Virus record (IMG/VR): IMGVR_UViG_2703718775_000026
Length of the DNA: 39,308 nt
DNA from: a virus
Lineage: Duplodnaviria; Heunggongvirae; Uroviricota; Caudoviricetes
Reading direction: 5' to 3' (one strand)
In this document: positions 1 through 39,308 of the stretch, piece by piece
Numbering within the stretch: position 1 is the stretch's first letter
Layout: each line of letters starts with the position of its first letter
Notes under the pieces: model-generated
Seen by the model: the letters and a program-made list of their open reading frames with translations, nothing else
What the model was told of the DNA's origin: nothing
The model's database searches: none
Program-made: the position numbers and the translations under genes

Positions 1-321
1 TCACACTTCCTCTATAAATTCAGGTTCAGTTTGCGGGTAGAAATAACGGTACTGATAATGAATCTGTGCACGGGCTTCTTCCGGGCTGTTGAATTCCCCT
101 ACGCCATACCAACCGAACAGCGCAGCTCCTGCGACGGTCGTTTCGGCATCGTCGAGAACTTTTACCGGAATATCAAGCATATTGGCTTTAATCTGATTCC
201 ACAATGTGTTGCGACTTCCTCCACCGACTAACAATAATTCAGAGGCCTTAAAGTGCCCGATTTTTTCCAGCATCTGTAGATTGCGCTGTAATTGCGCAGT
301 TAACCCTTCCAGCGCCGCGCG
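1..321 (-). pseudogene. fucK: 3' fragment of FGGY-family carbohydrate kinase gene (L-fuculokinase-like), 5' part separated by prophage insertion
   Basis: Minus-strand translation ends ...[55 protein letters not shown]...EFIEEV with stop at 1-3. The [10 protein letters not shown]...W.QI.A motif is the FGGY kinase C-terminal signature. 112 aa is far too short for a ~480 aa kinase, and the Met at 337-339 appears to be created by phage-end sequence. Confidence 0.6.
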
Positions 322-500
322 TGTAACCAGGTGAATCATTTGATACCAACGAGGGTTTTAGTGAAAGGAGGTGAAATCACCTGTAAGATACTGAAATAAA
401 ACAGGTGATGTCTGGATGAGCGCTTAAAGTCTATTTGATACCGATTGTGCAATAATTAATCGTTTATTCTAAAATCGGCAAAACTTTTGATACTGCGATC
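322..500 (+). repeat. Prophage left-end region (attL-like) with repeated TTTGATAC and TGAAA motifs, candidate transposase-binding sites
   Basis: TTTGATACC at about 339-347 and 434-442, TTTGATACT at about 486-494; GTGAATCA, GTGAAAGG, GTGAAATCAC and CTGAAATA between 331 and 400. Terminal TGTA resembles the Mu end TGTATTGATTCAC. Confidence 0.5.
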
Positions 501-571
501 TCAACTTTTTAAAGCGTTTAAAACTTCATTAAATCTATATGGCAACTAACATACGGGCCAGCCTCGCCAAA

Positions 572-1102
572 CTAACCCGCTTTAGATTCTACCGGATTTG
601 ATTGCCTACTTGTCTCGGTTTTTTCCAAAATCTCTCTGACGCAATCGTCTGGCATATCTACAATCATCAACGCAGCCAGGCGCTTCCTGCCTTCTAGTTG
701 TAATAAATCCTGGTTTTCTTTATCCAGCAGTGTCAGAACCGTCTCTACACCTTTGCGAGCAAGGAGATTGGTTAACTGTTCTCGTTCGTCTTTCGTAAGG
801 AATGAAAGCATCTGTGTAAGTTGATCTCCCTTATCACCAGAACAACCAAAATTACCACAAATACCAACATCGTTTGGTGATTCACCCTTGCCCTCTTTAA
901 GCCACTCAAGACTAACTCCTTCACTTTCAGAAATTCGTATAAGGATACTTTCTCTGGGGGCTGGTTGTGTTTGTCCTCCCTTGAAATAGCTGTTTAATGT
1001 GTTGATATTGATTCCCCACGCTCTGGCAGCTGCACTTCTTGAAGGGTAGCGCTTTGTAAGCATTCCAATACGTTCAATAATAGGTTCTTTTCCCTGCGAC
1101 AT
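572..1102 (-). CDS. c: Mu c-like lysogeny repressor
   Basis: Minus-strand ORF divergent from ner/A/B. HTH-like segment SRSAAARAWGININTLNSYFKGG and LLALM-type C-terminal region. Probable start is the Met of MSQGKEPIIERIG (cat at 1100-1102) with AAGAGG 8 nt upstream; the six-frame ORF extends to 1177. Confidence 0.7.
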   Translation of the reverse strand: MSQGKEPIIERIGMLTKRYPSRSAAARAWGININTLNSYFKGGQTQPAPRESILIRISESEGVSLEWLKEGKGESPNDVGICGNFGCSGDKGDQLTQMLSFLTKDEREQLTNLLARKGVETVLTLLDKENQDLLQLEGRKRLAALMIVDMPDDCVREILEKTETSRQSNPVESKAG

Positions 1103-1177
1103 AAAGATACCTCTTGGTGCTTTTCTAAGGAAAGGTTTCTTTCTATTTATCCAATTGAAAAATAAGGATAAAAGCAA

Positions 1178-1292
1178 AAATTAGCCAAAATACCAAAAAT
1201 ACCTTGATTTGGTATTTTTAGTGATGCATTATTTACCCGTGCAGATATCCGCACGAATATCCGCGCGGGTAACTTTTTAGAATAGAGGAAGT
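1178..1292. promoter_or_regulatory. Divergent c/early promoter-operator region
   Basis: Intergenic between divergent c and ner. Repeated CCAAAATACC / AAAATACC with inverted GGTATTTT, tandem ATATCCGC, and flanking inverted repeat TTACCCG...CGGGTAA. Confidence 0.5.
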
Positions 1293-1541
1293 ATGAGTAG
1301 AAGAGAAGTTTCAGATCACGATTGGCCGCCTGAAATCATCAAGGCGCGCTTACACATGGCTGGCTTATCACTGCGCTCTTTATCTTTAAAGGCTGGTTAC
1401 AGCAGGGATTCGCTGAAAAGCGTATTACGTACTCCTTGCCGACCGTATCAGCAAATAATTGCTGATGCTCTTGGGGTATCGCCTGAAGAAATCTGGCCCA
1501 GTAGATACCAGGTTAAGAGCTATATGAGAAAGGCGTCATGA
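1293..1541 (+). CDS. ner: Ner-like DNA-binding early regulator
   Basis: 82 aa, first gene of the rightward early operon; GAGGAAG RBS; ...QIIADALGVSPEEIWPSRYQ resembles Mu Ner (...QIIANALETKPEVIWPSRYQ). Confidence 0.8.
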   Translation: MSRREVSDHDWPPEIIKARLHMAGLSLRSLSLKAGYSRDSLKSVLRTPCRPYQQIIADALGVSPEEIWPSRYQVKSYMRKAS

Positions 1542-1542
1542 T

Positions 1543-3633
1543 ATGTATGTCATTGCAAAAGAACTGATTGGCGCGCCCGGAATGCCTGCTACAACAAAAG
1601 GTATTCGCCAGGCATTACAACGTTACGTACAAGGGAAAAGCTGTTGTTCCCGTCGTCGCTCAGGCTCTAAAGCAACTGAATACAGCATCGACTGTTTACC
1701 TGAAGTGACGCAGCAGGCATTACGTGAACGTTATGCCCTGCAACTGATGACGCAAAAAGCCGATGAATCACCGGCTCCGGTAGTGACAAAGGCCAGGCGC
1801 TCACCTGCCGTGGTTGATGCGGTGGAGGCATATCGCGGATCACCACAACTGATGGTCGAACGCCTTAATGCCCTGACTGAAAACCAGCGCCAGGTGGCTG
1901 ATGCACGAATCGCGATCGTCAGCGAAGTTCTGAAAGTCGCGCAACAACCTGGTTTCAGCTGTGCGAAGGCTATCCGGTTTATCGTTGACAACCTGGCACG
2001 TTCGCAGCTGGACGAGCGCATTGTGGCAATGGTTGAGACGGCGAACGCCAAAAAGGGAAACAGCCGCGCGTTAAGTGAAATCACGCTGAAACGCTGGATT
2101 GCGGCCTTTAACAAGGCGCAGAACGCCGCTGAACGCCTGCTTTTACTGGCACCGGGTAAGCGCCAGGAAATAAAAGCCGAAGATATTAACTGGCTGCCCG
2201 AATTTCTGGCGCAGTATCGCCAGTCAAACGGCCGACCAATGACCGAGGCTTACGAGGATTTTGTCGCTGAATGGCAGCACCGGCACGCTGATGAGCCTTA
2301 TATGCTCGATATCATGCCGTCTTATGACACCATTCGCCGCGCAATGAAGAAACTGCCGGAAGTGGTGAAACAAAAAGGCCGGGTGACCGGCAGTGAATAC
2401 CGCCAGCTTGAGGGATTCACGCGCCGCGACTGGTCAAAAATGCCGGTGAATTATGTCTGGATTGGTGACGGTCACGGCATGAAGCTGAAATGCGCACACC
2501 CGGTTCACGGTCGGCCATTTGCACCGGAAGTGACCTTTGTTATCGACGGTGGCACGCGCTTTGTGGTGGGCTGGAGCCTTGACCTGGCTGAAAATGTTTT
2601 CGCCGTAGCCGGTGCCATACAGCACGGCATTCGCCATCACGGCAAACCGTTTCTGTATTACTCGGATAACGGCTCCGGGGAAACCGCCGACATCCTGGAT
2701 AAGGAGGTTGTGGGGATACTGCCGCGACTGGGGATTAATCACCCGACCGGGATTGCCGGTAATCCGCAGGGACGAGGCATTATCGAACGGCTTAACCGCA
2801 CATTACCGATGCGCATAGCCCGTAAATACCGCACCTATTTCGGGAAAGGTGCAGATCGCGAGACGTTACGCAAAACCAACCGCGATTTACGCTCGGCATT
2901 TACTGCCCTGCAACAGGGCAAACGGCTGAACGCCCAGCAGCAGTCAGCGATGCGTGATTTACCGTCCTGGTCTGAACTGATTGATGCCATTCGTGATGGT
3001 GTTGAGTGGTACAACAACCGGCCGCACGATGAATTACCGGTGAAGCCGAACGGCAAGCATTACAGCCCGGCGGAGTTCAGAAAAAAACGCCTGGCGGAAG
3101 AGGACACGGAAATTGAATGGCTGTCCGATGTGGAATTGCGGGACATGTTCCGGCCGATGGTGGAACGCCCTGTAAGACGCTGTGAAATACGCTGGCTGAA
3201 TAATATTTACTACGCGCCCGAGCTGCGTGATGAGCATGGCCGCAAGGTGCTTATCAGCTATGACATTCATGATGCCGAACGAATTACCGTACGTCGCCTG
3301 GATGGCAGCGTGATTTGCGAGGCGGTATGGGACGGTAATAAACGCGAAGCCTTCCCGGTTAGCGCGGAATACTACAAACAGCAGCAACGCCTTAAAGGCA
3401 TGCGTAAACGCGCAGAGGAAAAAATCCGTGATGCCGAGGATGAGGTTGTCAACGTGCTGGAGCACAAGCCGCAGGAGCCCTGGCTGGAAAACATCTATCG
3501 CCCGGTAGGTAATACGGTGGCCGTTCAGCAACCTGCCGTTGATGATGAGCCTGATGAAGAATACGAGCGCAATTTCCAGCGGGGATTGCAGTTGCTCGAA
3601 GCGAAATTAAAAGAAAATGACCCGCTGGCCTGA
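1543..3633 (+). CDS. A: MuA-like DDE transposase
   Basis: 696 aa. DDE-type motifs VWIGDGHG, YYSDNGSGE and GIIERLNRT. Position after ner and before B. Confidence 0.85.
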   Translation: MYVIAKELIGAPGMPATTKGIRQALQRYVQGKSCCSRRRSGSKATEYSIDCLPEVTQQALRERYALQLMTQKADESPAPVVTKARRSPAVVDAVEAYRGSPQLMVERLNALTENQRQVADARIAIVSEVLKVAQQPGFSCAKAIRFIVDNLARSQLDERIVAMVETANAKKGNSRALSEITLKRWIAAFNKAQNAAERLLLLAPGKRQEIKAEDINWLPEFLAQYRQSNGRPMTEAYEDFVAEWQHRHADEPYMLDIMPSYDTIRRAMKKLPEVVKQKGRVTGSEYRQLEGFTRRDWSKMPVNYVWIGDGHGMKLKCAHPVHGRPFAPEVTFVIDGGTRFVVGWSLDLAENVFAVAGAIQHGIRHHGKPFLYYSDNGSGETADILDKEVVGILPRLGINHPTGIAGNPQGRGIIERLNRTLPMRIARKYRTYFGKGADRETLRKTNRDLRSAFTALQQGKRLNAQQQSAMRDLPSWSELIDAIRDGVEWYNNRPHDELPVKPNGKHYSPAEFRKKRLAEEDTEIEWLSDVELRDMFRPMVERPVRRCEIRWLNNIYYAPELRDEHGRKVLISYDIHDAERITVRRLDGSVICEAVWDGNKREAFPVSAEYYKQQQRLKGMRKRAEEKIRDAEDEVVNVLEHKPQEPWLENIYRPVGNTVAVQQPAVDDEPDEEYERNFQRGLQLLEAKLKENDPLA

Positions 3634-3640
3634 AATAAAA

Positions 3641-3670
3641 AAATAACCCGAGCGGCGACTCAGGTTATTT
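3641..3670 (+). other. Imperfect hairpin between A and B (possible attenuator or RNA processing element)
   Basis: AAATAACCCGAG / CTCAGGTTATTT inverted repeat with a 6-nt loop, flanked by A-rich and T-rich tracts. Confidence 0.3.
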
Positions 3671-3704
3671 GATTAAACAAGGTATCAAATGAGAGGTTAA
3701 TAAT

Positions 3705-4637
3705 ATGACTGATATTAACGATGTAATCAAGACCATTGATGAACTTATTGATGGCGGCGTACTGACGCAGTATGCCATCGCCAGAGAGGCGGGAATTTCC
3801 GACGGCACATTATCGGCTTTCCGTAAGGGAAAATATAAAGGCGATAACGCTGCTGTGGCTGCTTCCCTGCGTTCCTGGTATGAGAACTGGAATAAACAAA
3901 GCGCACTGCCGGAACCGCCGCAGTTTGTGGAAACGCAGACAGTCCAGGAGCTGCGCGCACTGTTTCAGGCGGTTCGTCTGATGGGCTGTATTAACGTTAT
4001 TGTGGGCGTACCGGGTGTGGGTAAAACGGCCACTGCCCGTAATTACTGCCAGGAGCAACCAAACACCTGGATGATCACCCTGTCACCCGCGCACTCCAGC
4101 GTCACGGAGTGTCTGCTGGAGCTGGCCGATGCGCTGGGGATTGATTACACCCGCGCGAACAAAGGGGCATTATCCCGCGCCATCCGCCGTCGCCTGATGG
4201 GAACGCGTGGACTGGTTATTGTGGATGAGGCGGATCATCTTGGTATTGACGGTCTGGAGCAACTCCGGGCAATTCAGGACGCCACGGGGATCGGGATGGT
4301 GCTTATTGGTAACCCGCGCGGATTGTTTAAAGGTGGACGCCGCACCTTTGATGATTTATCGCGCCTGTTCAGCCGTCTTGCCCGTACAAAACAACTTCGC
4401 AAGGCCAAAAAGGCGGATGTGCTGGCCATTGCCAGGGCGTGGGGGATCAGTGGTGAGGCCGAGCTGGCCGTCATGCAGGCTATCGCTGAAAAGCCGGGAG
4501 CGTTACGCGTTCTGACACATACGCTTAACCAGGCGTGGCTCACCGCCAGCGGTGAAGGCGCGGCGCTGACAGAAAAACATATTAATGCGGCCTTTAAAGA
4601 GGTTTATACCAACCCTGAATTACTCTCACAGGTGTGA
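3705..4637 (+). CDS. B: MuB-like ATP-dependent target DNA activator
   Basis: 310 aa (Mu B ~312 aa); Walker A GVPGVGKT; N-terminal HTH-like region; follows A. Confidence 0.85.
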   Translation: MTDINDVIKTIDELIDGGVLTQYAIAREAGISDGTLSAFRKGKYKGDNAAVAASLRSWYENWNKQSALPEPPQFVETQTVQELRALFQAVRLMGCINVIVGVPGVGKTATARNYCQEQPNTWMITLSPAHSSVTECLLELADALGIDYTRANKGALSRAIRRRLMGTRGLVIVDEADHLGIDGLEQLRAIQDATGIGMVLIGNPRGLFKGGRRTFDDLSRLFSRLARTKQLRKAKKADVLAIARAWGISGEAELAVMQAIAEKPGALRVLTHTLNQAWLTASGEGAALTEKHINAAFKEVYTNPELLSQV

Positions 4638-17152: not shown

Positions 17153-18467
17153 TTTAGGTTATGCCGCCACCCTTCCCTCAAAAGAGGCGGTGGCATACTT
17201 CCGCGCCAAAGGGGCGCATATCAGCTGGAACTGGTTCGAAACAAACGCAGATGTTCATGCCCGTTCATTCACGGCGGCAAAAGTGGCACGCCTGGACGTA
17301 CTGACCACACTACAGGCGGAAGTGCAGCGTGCTGTTGATGAGGGGATTTCACAGAAAGCATTTATCCGCACACTGACACCCCGCCTGCAAAAGCTGGGAT
17401 GGTGGGGAAAGCAGATTGTGGTGGACAGCGCCGGTAACGCAGAAGAAGTGCAGCTGGGCAGTCCCCGCCGTCTGGCGCTGATTTACAACGTGAACACCCG
17501 CGTGGCTTACAATGCCGGGCGTTACACGCAGATGATGAACAACACGGACACGCATCCGTTCTGGCAGTATGTGGCGGTGATGGACAGCCGCACCCGCCCG
17601 GCGCATTCCGCCCTTAACGGGCTGGTATTCCGCTATGACGATCCGTTCTGGAATACACACTACCCACCCAATGGCTGGAACTGCCGCTGCCGTGTCCGGC
17701 CATTGTCTCAGGCCCGTCTGGATGCAATGGGGTTATCCGTTTCATCCGGTCAGGATCATCTTTCCACCCGCAATGTTGAGGCTGGCGTGGATAAGCAGAC
17801 CGGAGAAGTCAGAGAAATGCCGGTGACCACATATTCAGATGGCACCAGAACCATGACACCGGATGTGGGCTGGTCATATAACCCCGGTTCGGCGGCGTTC
17901 GGCACAGACCAGGCGCTGCTCCGCAAGTTGATCGAGGTGAAAAGCCCGGCGTTACGGGAAATGGTGGTTCAGGAGATGAACAACAGCCCGGAGCGGCAGC
18001 TGGCGTTCCGCATCTGGGCAAAAAACATCATGAAAACCCGGCGAGGCGGTAACGATATCCGCACGCTGGGCTTTATGACCGAAAGTATTGCGCAGGCGGT
18101 GGAAAGCCGGACGGGAACGCCACCGGCCCGCCTGCTGGCGATGAGCGGTAAAAATGTGCTCCATGCGGACAGCATGAAACATCAGAATGACGGCATTGCC
18201 CTGACGCCGGAGGATTTCGGGCGATTACCGGCAATGCTGGCAAAGCCAAAAGCGGTACTGTGGGATAAACGCCACAACAATCTGATGTATATCGTGGAAA
18301 GTAAGGATGGCAGTGTGCAGATTGCCGTTAATGCGCCGTACAGCCTGAAGCGTCAGCCGGATAAACTGGATGTGATTGTGAATGCTTACCGGGTTATCAA
18401 TATGGATAAGCTGAAATCGGATATCCGGGGCGGAATGCTTGAGGTACTGGAAGGAGATATTGATTAA
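17136..18467 (+). CDS. Head morphogenesis protein (Mu F / gp30-like)
   Basis: 443 aa; follows the portal. Confidence 0.65.
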   Translation: MAQGIDLGYAATLPSKEAVAYFRAKGAHISWNWFETNADVHARSFTAAKVARLDVLTTLQAEVQRAVDEGISQKAFIRTLTPRLQKLGWWGKQIVVDSAGNAEEVQLGSPRRLALIYNVNTRVAYNAGRYTQMMNNTDTHPFWQYVAVMDSRTRPAHSALNGLVFRYDDPFWNTHYPPNGWNCRCRVRPLSQARLDAMGLSVSSGQDHLSTRNVEAGVDKQTGEVREMPVTTYSDGTRTMTPDVGWSYNPGSAAFGTDQALLRKLIEVKSPALREMVVQEMNNSPERQLAFRIWAKNIMKTRRGGNDIRTLGFMTESIAQAVESRTGTPPARLLAMSGKNVLHADSMKHQNDGIALTPEDFGRLPAMLAKPKAVLWDKRHNNLMYIVESKDGSVQIAVNAPYSLKRQPDKLDVIVNAYRVINMDKLKSDIRGGMLEVLEGDID

Positions 18468-18552
18468 CGGTCAGTGGCGGGGGTCGAACCCGCATACATG
18501 ATCCACCCGGAGGCAGGCACCGACTTTACCAGTTAAGCGTACACTGACCGCC
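18468..18552 (-). ncRNA. tRNA-like structured element (acceptor stem plus canonical T-arm, no anticodon arm found)
   Basis: Minus strand reads GTCAGTG...GCGGGTTCGACCCCCGC-CACTGAC-C: a 7-bp acceptor-like stem and a T-arm matching the GTTCRANYC consensus. On the plus strand the same inverted repeat is followed by a T-rich tract. Confidence 0.3.
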
Positions 18553-18588
18553 TGCTTATTTTATATTCATATTTTATACGGAGGCAAT

Positions 18589-20363: not shown

Positions 20364-21310
20364 TGCCTACCCCGATTACACCGGCGATGATCACCGCCCT
20401 GATGACGGGCTACCGTTCTGATTTTCAGGCCGGGATGTCCATGGCCCCGTCGCAGTACAAAAAAATTGCGATGACCGTACCGTCCACGTCGAAATCCAAC
20501 ACCTACGGCTGGCTGGGGCAGTTCCCGCAGTTCCGTGAGTGGATCGGCTCCCGCGTCATCGAGAAGATGAAGGCCTATGGCTATGCCATCGTGAACAAAA
20601 CCTTTGAAGGCACCGTCGCCATTAACCGCGATGACTTCGAAGACGATAACCTCGGTATTTATTCCCCGTTGTTCCAGGAGATGGGGCGCGCTGCTGCGGC
20701 ACAACCGGATGAACTGGTCTTTGCTGCTCTTCGTGACGGGATTAATGCGGCCTGCTATGACGGCCAGAACTTCTTTGATACCGAACATCCTGTTTACCCC
20801 AAAGTGGATGGCTCCGGGGATGCGCAGATGGTCAGCAATATGTTTGTGGCAAAAACCGGCTCTGTCGGTGCACAAGCGGATTACAGCGGTCCTGCCTGGT
20901 ATCTGCTCGACTGTTCACGCGCAATCAAACCGCTGATTTATCAGGATCGCCGTAAGGCTGAACTGGTTGCCCAGACCAAAGTCGATGAAGGTCGCGCATT
21001 CACCGATAACGAATTTGTGTTTGGTGCATCCGCCCGTCGCAATGTGGGCTACGGCTTCTGGCAGATGGCCTACATGATGCAGTCACCGCTGACGCTGGAT
21101 GCACTGTGGCACGGCTGGTCAGCCATGCGCGAATTTACCGCTGACGGTGGCCGCAAACTCGGCATCAAACCCACCCATATTGTTGTCCCCACCTCGCTGG
21201 AAAAACAGGCGGTGCAGCTGCTGGAGCGTGAACTGTTCGCAGACGGAAACGCAACCGTCTCTAACGAGATGAAGGGCAAGCTGGAGCTGGTTGTCGCGGA
21301 TTATCTGTAA
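20363..21310 (+). CDS. Major head subunit (Mu T-like)
   Basis: 315 aa; ATGA-type overlap with the I-like gene. Confidence 0.7.
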   Translation: MPTPITPAMITALMTGYRSDFQAGMSMAPSQYKKIAMTVPSTSKSNTYGWLGQFPQFREWIGSRVIEKMKAYGYAIVNKTFEGTVAINRDDFEDDNLGIYSPLFQEMGRAAAAQPDELVFAALRDGINAACYDGQNFFDTEHPVYPKVDGSGDAQMVSNMFVAKTGSVGAQADYSGPAWYLLDCSRAIKPLIYQDRRKAELVAQTKVDEGRAFTDNEFVFGASARRNVGYGFWQMAYMMQSPLTLDALWHGWSAMREFTADGGRKLGIKPTHIVVPTSLEKQAVQLLERELFADGNATVSNEMKGKLELVVADYL

Positions 21311-38189: not shown

Positions 38190-38416
38190 TACGCGCGATC
38201 CTACCTTCACTGTATAAAAAGTCAATAAAATGATCATTTTATGATCGTTTTCACCACCTAACTCTTCGTTTCTTTAAGTAAATAATCACCGCCCTGAATC
38301 ATTGTTGATGACTTTTAAATCTATTTGTTGTATCAATTAAACAAATCGAATCGATCGTTTTTGTCGATCGATTGCATGAGAAAGGCATCAACAACAAAGC
38401 AGGAGGTTATGCGGCC
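38190..38416 (+). promoter_or_regulatory. Putative mom-operon regulatory region with clustered Dam (GATC) sites
   Basis: Five GATC within about 175 bp (about 38197, 38232, 38243, 38353, 38366), arranged as two repeat pairs: TGATCATTTTATGATCGTTTT and ATCGATCGTTTTTGTCGATCGAT. Confidence 0.5.
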
Positions 38417-38617
38417 ATGTATCGAAACATACGGTGCCGACACTGCAATAAGCTACTGGCACGGGCCAGTTTCAGTTATCTGGAAGTAAAATGTCCGCGC
38501 TGTAAAACCCTCAATCAAATCACATCTCCGAGCGCCACAGAGCACCCCACATACACAAGGAAATCCTGTCGTGGGGAACAGAAAGCAAGTCACATCCCGT
38601 ATCATCAGCACGCCTGA
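38417..38617 (+). CDS. com: Com-like zinc-finger translational activator of mom
   Basis: ATG with AGCAGGAGG RBS; [35 protein letters not shown] resembles Mu Com (...IRCKNCNKLL...IEIRCPRCKR...); overlaps the mom start. Confidence 0.7.
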
Positions 38618-39308
38618 ACTTATTCGCTATAACGACAATATCGTTGGTTATGGCTCCCGTGAGTTGCGGGTTGAGACAATAAGTTGCTGGCTGGCCAGAC
38701 TGGTTATCGTCAATAAACATTACAGCCACCGTTTCGTAAATAATTCCTACCTTCATCTGGGTATATTTTCAGAACGGGAACTTGTTGGCGTAATGCAATG
38801 GGGTTACGCCCTTAACCCAAACAGTGGTGCACGCGTCGTAACGGGTACGCAGAACCGAGAATATATGGAGCTTAACCGGCTATGGATGCATGACTGTATG
38901 CCGAGAAACTCCGAATCAAGGGCAATCAGTTACGCGCTCAAGCTAATCAGGCAGCTTTATCCGCAGGTACAGTGGGTTCAGTCGTTTGCAGATGAGCGTT
39001 GTGGCTGTCTTGGTGTCGTGTATCAGGCAAGCAATTTTGATTATGTAGGCAGCCATGAATCAACATTCTATGAACTTGATGGCGAGTGGTATCACGAGAT
39101 TTGCAGGAGTGCCATTAAACGAGGCGGACAACGAGGTGAACATCTGAGGGCTAATATCGACAGAGCCAGTGTGCATAAGTTCCGACAGTTTCGTTACATC
39201 CGGTTTCTGAACAAGAGGGCCAGAAAACGCCTCAACACAAAGCTATTCAAAGTCCAGCCTTACCCAAAACCACAAACAGTTAAAACTGGTTTGAAAGAGA
39301 GTGAATGA
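38571..39308 (+). CDS. mom: Mom-like DNA modification protein (adenine modification, anti-restriction); start uncertain
   Basis: 245-aa ORF overlapping the com 3' end, stop at window end; position downstream of gin and com as in Mu. Confidence 0.65.

Follow-up and report, generated by a model that had tools for sequence, protein, structure and literature searches.

An Sp18-type, Mu-like prophage in Escherichia coli fucK flanked by a 4-bp target-site duplication

Results

Genes in the window and the break in fucK

The window, that is the whole stretch of DNA analysed here (39,308 nt), opens at the stop codon of E. coli fucK (position 1) and closes at the stop codon of mom, 129 bp before the right end of a prophage that begins at position 322. 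From there, the phage genes follow in the order repressor, ner, A, B, kil, gam, gemA/mor, lysis, head, contractile tail, an invertible tail-fibre segment, com and mom. The host part, the junction and the annotated phage genes are as follows.

1–321, minus strand: 3′ part of host fucK (L-fuculokinase), last 106 codons plus stop; 100% identity to fucK, Pfam FGGY_C
1–339, minus strand: chimeric ORF of 112 aa, an ATG and five phage-end codons fused to the FucK C-terminal fragment
318–321: CGCG, left copy of the 4-bp target-site duplication; the right junction reads ...GCGCTATA/CGCG/ATAGAAATG (slashes mark junctions)
572–1177, minus strand: repressor (c-like), a helix-turn-helix protein in relatives, positioned as in Mu
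1178–1292: putative divergent early control region, assigned by position only, with operator-like inverted repeats at 1187–1218 and 1233–1272
1293–1541, plus strand: ner-like regulator (Pfam HTH_35, E = 2.5e-19)
1543–3633, plus strand: transposase A, 696 aa, with a DDE/RNase H-like core and Mu-transpos_C (PF09299, E = 1.5e-17; PF02316)
3705–4637, plus strand: MuB-like AAA+ transposition ATPase (Phage-MuB_C PF09077, E = 2.5e-25; AAA_22)
38417–39308, plus strand: com and mom, the last prophage genes; the right end (129 bp, ...GGTATCAAAAAAATCGCCGCGCTATA) lies immediately outside the window

Read on the minus strand, positions 1–321 correspond to the 3′ end of E. coli fucK: thousands of complete genomes match them at 100% identity, and all of these alignments stop at 321. 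The fragment carries the FGGY_C domain (Pfam E = 2.4e-16) and has fucU, fucR and rlmM as its neighbours, the intact locus being ordered fucI-fucK-fucU-fucR; 321 nt at full identity, a place upstream of fucU-fucR and the FGGY_C domain thus agree in identifying the gene. The first-pass annotation had recognised the C-terminus of an FGGY kinase up to about position 321 and had proposed aligning it with the host gene; this alignment both names the kinase and fixes the break. Intact fucK reads ...CCGCGCG/ATAGAAATG and the window ...CCGCGCG/TGTAACCAGGTGAATCA (with longer context, ...CCAGCGCCGCGCG/ATAGAAATGCC versus ...CCAGCGCCGCGCG/TGTAACCAGGTGAATCATTTGATACC). Since the host sequence diverges exactly after the shared CCGCGCG, the break lies between 321 and 322, and the phage starts with 5′-TG at 322. 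The break falls on a codon boundary and splits fucK after codon 366 of 472.

The right junction and the 4-bp duplication

We used the chimeric ORF (1–339) as an exact-match tag for the left junction, which was found in two NCBI assemblies (GCA_001607025.1 and GCA_002924065.1) as well as in Logan runs, and was absent from the 5,426 complete E. coli genomes searched. GCA_001607025.1 is identical to the window over 10.3 kb. For the right junction, a look-up of the Mom protein returned no fucK contig and gave ten independent right ends instead. We predicted the FucK N-terminal fragments that duplications of 3, 4, 5 and 6 bp would produce, and looked these up in a collection of 15 billion proteins. 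The 4-bp prediction (368 aa, ending ...TTRGHFYRV before the stop) is present exactly, and the fragments predicted for 3-, 5- and 6-bp duplications are absent from that collection.

The contig encoding the 368-aa fragment comes from GCA_002924065.1, the assembly that also holds the left junction, and it adjoins fucI and fucP. The junction reads ...CATTTCTATCGCG/TATAGCGCGGCG... on this contig and, from the side of the FucK fragment, ...GGGCATTTCTATCGCG/TATAGCGCGGCGATTTTTTTGATACC..., so that the N-terminal 366 codons of fucK resume directly past the right phage terminus. In the orientation of the window, the insertion is ...GCGCCG(CGCG)/TGTAACC ... GCGCTATA/(CGCG)ATAGAAATG, with the duplicated bases in parentheses, and intact fucK has one CGCG followed by ATAG. 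An N-terminal half running on beyond 321 would have spoken against an insertion; it sits instead beyond the right phage end. There, the earlier expectation of finding the other half of the gene was borne out, while the 5-bp duplication anticipated with it proved to be one of 4 bp, CGCG.

The assembly that supplied the right junction is thus a sister of the one matching the window, and past ~6.8 kb its phage interior is a different one. Its contig BESM01000033.1 has the identical fucK junction, another interior from ~6.8 kb on (compared with the window at ~6.8–10 kb) and other small early genes, which suggests recombination with another Mu-like copy after the insertion.

Identity and spread of the phage

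Over its first 300 nt, the phage agrees with Sp18 of O157:H7 Sakai at every position (300/300). Many E. coli copies are 100% identical to the final 1,109 nt of the window, and an annotated copy has its genes in the same order. Sp18 itself has been described as a Mu-like prophage, with DNA that is packaged without being circularised (PMC2669165), and its relatives occupy strain-specific sites in Shiga-toxin-producing E. coli (STEC; PMC7430833, PMC10132054), where phages of this type are common. The phage half of our query matched beside hyaE, bcsA, nadB and tail genes or other prophages, that is at many unrelated sites and with no attB; the mom-proximal 1.1 kb (window 38200–39308) occurs in 233 of 5,426 complete E. 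coli genomes, at up to four places per genome, and ten different right flanks were present among the matches of the Mom look-up. What we have here is a known phage family at a new or rare site, the insertion being represented by two draft assemblies and a small number of sequencing runs. The set of c, ner, A, B ... com and mom, together with the same ends at many unrelated sites, bears out the earlier reading of the element as a Mu-like transposable prophage.

These data also bear on whether the phage might have entered fucK site-specifically, by an integrase-like or otherwise target-directed route and not by near-random transposition. In all eight insertions listed below the duplication starts with a pyrimidine, so some target preference exists. 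The fucK junction, however, occurs in none of the 5,426 complete genomes, the phage is found in dozens of other genes, and an integrase is absent, the invertase-type recombinase belonging to the tail-fibre inversion segment (PMC2669165). We regard site-specific entry as having a negligible chance of being correct.

Termini and duplication length across the family

Ten of ten left junctions begin with TGTAACC, the nine at other loci all starting TGTAACCAGGT, and the preceding base varies; the proposed 5′-TG start at 322 is thereby established. At the other side, 11 right junctions at different loci share the 129 bp after mom, up to ...GGTATCAAAAAAATCGCCGCGCTATA, and diverge beyond it, and six more agree, so that 17 of 17 end in ...GCGCTATA (TATA-3′) before differing host DNA. 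The right terminus is thus TA-3′ and not CA-3′, whereas the left one does carry 5′-TG.

Eight insertions could be paired cleanly, with the same gene on both sides, and all eight show a duplication of 4 bp:

melA: CGTT
gab locus (left flank adjoins gabT): CACG
ydj locus: TGGA
yahO region: TTTT
fucK (present insertion): CGCG
DUF4224 gene: TGAT
etk: CATA
sorM (Sakai Sp18): TAAA

The fifth base outward is mismatched in six of the eight pairs, and a shift of the boundary therefore cannot rescue a 5-bp duplication; parses that assign the final A of TATA or the initial T of TG to the target, and would thereby give 5 bp, fail in most pairs. This count leaves out two related copies with unlike flanks, which we deemed rearranged. 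One of them (NZ_AP027159.1, 1253300–1293800) has hyaE on one side and torS on the other, the second (NZ_CP028609.1) an ISEc8 transposase and a polyketide-synthase gene, and neither has a duplication. Their flanks suggest deletions or inversions, either between phage copies or at transposition.

Such rearranged copies show that rearrangements happen, and one may ask whether the fucK junction, too, is an assembly chimera or the mark of a degraded remnant, with no real transposition by an active phage behind it, particularly as the window stops short of the right end and draft contigs break inside a multi-copy phage. Against this stand the recovery of the left junction from two independent NCBI assemblies and from Logan runs, the complementary right junction with its precise 4-bp duplication, a gene set that is complete from c to mom, and ends that are those of Sp18, whose DNA is packaged (PMC2669165). 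A chimera or remnant is thus very improbable, and an insertion by transposition is by far the better account of the junction.

Repeats at the phage ends

The left end carries the following elements.

322–350, plus strand: left terminus (5′-TGTA...) and putative transposase site L1, core TTTGATACC at 339–347; same offset as R1, conserved in vB_YpM_5
351–416: L1–L2 spacer, with TGAAA at 362, 372 and 392 and an imperfect inverted repeat, 373–384/401–412
417–445, plus strand: putative transposase site L2, core TTTGATACC at 434–442
469–497, plus strand: putative transposase site L3, core TTTGATACT at 486–494

Three repeats spaced about 95 and 52 bp apart, in a layout reminiscent of L1...L2-L3 of Mu, had been noticed in the first-pass annotation; they begin at 339, 434 and 486, with spacings of exactly 95 and 52 bp. 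The right end, which it had marked for a motif comparison, provides their R1-R2-R3 counterparts: three copies in the last 83 bp, in mirrored orientation. Each end thus has three copies of TTTGATAC(C/T) in the same orientation relative to its own terminus, the cores starting inward at nt 18, 113 and 165 on the left and at nt 18, 40 and 75 on the right, with an R1–R2 step of 22 bp. The first core therefore lies 18 nt from either terminus, equidistant from the two cleavage points. As to the matching inverted terminal sequence and duplication that the right end had been expected to show, the mirrored repeats and a duplication exist, but with TA in place of CA and 4 bp in place of 5.

The Yersinia phage vB_YpM_5, whose transposase region is 78.6% identical at the DNA level, keeps all six cores while the surrounding sequence has diverged; its right-end spacings are identical and those on the left are 103 and 41. 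Cores retained amid divergence are the pattern expected of transposase-binding sites, and by position, symmetry and conservation we infer that the six repeats are probably bound by the phage transposase. The TGAAA motifs, of which several had been reported, do occur in the L1–L2 spacer, but they form a weak cluster; since neither they nor the 373–412 hairpin are conserved in vB_YpM_5, we claim no function for them. In its circularised record (MT374853.1), the right and left ends of vB_YpM_5 are joined through ~85 nt of unrelated DNA (1046–1135), probably a packaged host flank, and its left terminus reads TA where it aligns to the TG of the present phage.

The repeats might alternatively be sites of another protein, such as the repressor, Ner or HU/IHF, or chance AT-rich words. 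Chance is excluded by the count of the 9-mer TTTGATACY, which occurs five times in the whole window against 0.38 expected (none of 100 shuffles reached five), three of them within 156 bp. For another protein speaks that the word AATACC of the operator region (1187–1222) resembles the end-site core GATACC, and that exact copies of TTTGATACC also lie at 3681–3689 (minus strand, in the A–B intergenic gap) and 20774–20782 (plus strand, inside a head gene). Moreover, the repressor shows no significant BLASTP similarity to the transposase N-terminus (best E = 3.3), so that the shared specificity known from Mu cannot serve as a guide here. Nevertheless, the copies are mirrored at the right end with the first core 18 nt from each terminus, a symmetry needed by a protein that positions two cleavage sites and not by an early-promoter regulator; in addition, the R1–R2 step is that of Mu, and the cores are conserved in the diverged vB_YpM_5. 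Binding by another protein is hence improbable, and the assignment to the transposase is preferred. The operator-like repeats themselves (1187–1222, 1233–1272) consist of AAAATACCAAA/TTTGGTATTTT and a 19-nt repeat.

The transposition module

Here a MuB-type AAA+ ATPase lies downstream of a DDE transposase that has the Mu C-terminal domain, the arrangement of transposable phages in general. The transposase is 22% identical to MuA, ~30% to D3112/DMS3-type transposases and 48% to that of Pseudomonas phage VW-6B, whereas the neighbouring B protein is 49% identical to MuB, which makes the early region a mosaic. With phmmer against the PDB, the transposase matches MuA (4fcy) only at E = 0.036 and retroviral integrase cores rank ahead, an order that reflects nothing beyond the shared RNase H-like fold. 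A distant search that took window 322–3700, the leftmost 3.4 kb, as its query found no DNA-level match to Mu. The element belongs to the transposable phages and, judged by its sequence, appears to work like Mu, with a transposition module that is not of the MuA type; a different stagger and a different terminal dinucleotide are then unsurprising. The term Mu-like is apt for the mechanism and the late genes and less so for the transposase, given its 22% identity to MuA.

Scans of the window for tRNAs (ARAGORN) and Rfam families found nothing. In the related copy of NZ_AP027159.1, RefSeq annotates an 81-nt 'tRNA-OTHER' on the minus strand (17931–18011 of the extract, ~18468–18588 of the window), between the head-morphogenesis and virion-morphogenesis genes.

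Consequences for the host

The insertion leaves a FucK N-terminal fragment that comprises the residues up to 367 plus one foreign residue, and a C-terminal fragment whose only start is a chance ATG at 337–339. No ribosome-binding site lies upstream of this ATG, and the chimeric ORF is therefore probably a gene-caller artefact. Because the C-terminal FGGY segment, including the GGGSRN motif of FGGY_C, is cut off, it is safe to infer that the kinase is inactive and FucK function lost. Downstream, 39 kb of phage now separate fucU and fucR from the fucPIK promoter, and transcription of these two genes could only stem from a promoter of their own or from read-through out of the co-oriented phage repressor gene, which is transcribed toward the left end and hence toward fucK′, fucU and fucR; 3′ of the repressor gene lies a weak terminator-like hairpin with no T-run. 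The use and sensing of fucose are important in gut colonisation by pathogenic E. coli. The fucose phenotype of the strain, which belongs to a small E. coli clone in which a known Mu-like prophage disrupts fucK, could thus be of local interest.

Discussion

Altogether, we conclude with a probability of roughly 90% that positions 322–571 of the window are the attL of an intact Sp18-type Mu-like prophage of ~39,116 bp, which entered fucK by DDE-transposase strand transfer. With the mechanism of Mu as background (PMC3145075), the 696-aa transposase and the MuB-like ATPase would pair both phage ends, and nicks would be placed at the 3′ A of TG/CA on the left (bottom strand) and of TA on the right (top strand). 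The ends would then be joined to target phosphates staggered by 4 bp, and gap repair would give rise to the duplication; the wide gap between L1 and L2 would serve as a bending spacer, by analogy with Mu. The chemistry may differ from that of Mu in detail, given the right TA where CA is conserved (PMC8705779) and 4 bp in place of 5.

Among transposable phages, duplications of 5 bp are known for Mu and of 6 bp for B3, and TG-CA termini are described as common to every Mu- and B3-like phage, the TA-TA prophages of Leptospira being the exception (PMC8705779; PMC3145075). In the literature searched we found no statement on the duplication length or the termini of Sp18-type phages, and the combination of 4 bp with TG and TA ends may be undescribed so far. 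The underlying sequence facts are solid (8/8 pairs, 17 right junctions), although an earlier publication outside the searched literature is possible. More tentatively, and at slightly less than even odds, the Sp18-type phages could represent an undescribed variant of Mu-type transposition, with a transposase distant from MuA, a 4-bp stagger, TG at the left and TA-3′ at the right end, and a preference for a pyrimidine as the first target base.

Compared with Mu, the present phage shares the order c-ner-A-B...com-mom, the 5′-TG at the left end (Mu begins TGTATTGATTCAC, as the first-pass annotation correctly stated), three repeats per end, Mom and Com, and a B protein at 49% identity. Likewise, L1 lies far from L2-L3 and R1 and R2 are 22 bp apart in both phages, and the spacer 351–416 corresponds by position to the HU-bound spacer of Mu attL. 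Scanned alike, Mu yields two 22-bp consensus sites on the left, starting at 6 and 151 (its L2 is too diverged for the scan), and three on the right, at 6, 28 and 56, the last of them inverted. The sites differ, when compared by their core sequence, in that the Mu consensus is ...RCGAAAR and the core here TTTGATACY, and R3 is inverted in Mu but direct here. Mu makes a 5-bp duplication and has CA at its right end, versus 4 bp and TA here. Finally, repressor and transposase of Mu share an N-terminal DNA-binding domain, and no such similarity was detected between the two proteins here.

Phages of the D3112/DMS3/Ab30 type (~30%) and VW-6B (48%) are nearer than Mu in their transposases, both values applying over ~90% of the length, yet they differ in late genes and morphology; insertions of the D3112-like Ab30 show a 5-bp offset between orientations (PMC5977238), as opposed to 4 bp in the present phage. 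The B3-type and Leptospira TA-TA prophages (PMC8705779) set a precedent both for a duplication length other than that of Mu (6 bp) and for a terminal TA. They differ, however, in having TA at both ends, a 6-bp duplication and a Tn552/B3-type transposase, whereas the present phage has TG at the left end, TA-3′ at the right end and 4 bp.

The closest counterpart is Sp18 of strain Sakai, which resembles the present phage in its left 300 nt, gene order, right-end sequence and 4-bp duplication, and differs in its insertion site (sorM in Sakai, fucK here) and in minor mosaic differences within the phage. In RefSeq, the feature 'prophage Sp18' (NC_002695.2, 5040971..5079729) lacks the first T and runs five host bases too far at the right; comparison places the ends at 5040970..5079724. 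Searches for TG...CA plus the 5-bp repeat usually looked for will misplace the boundaries of such prophages, an error seen in the Sakai reference annotation, which is off by 1 and 5 nt; the ends of this widespread family can be defined exactly, as TGTAACC...GCGCTATA.
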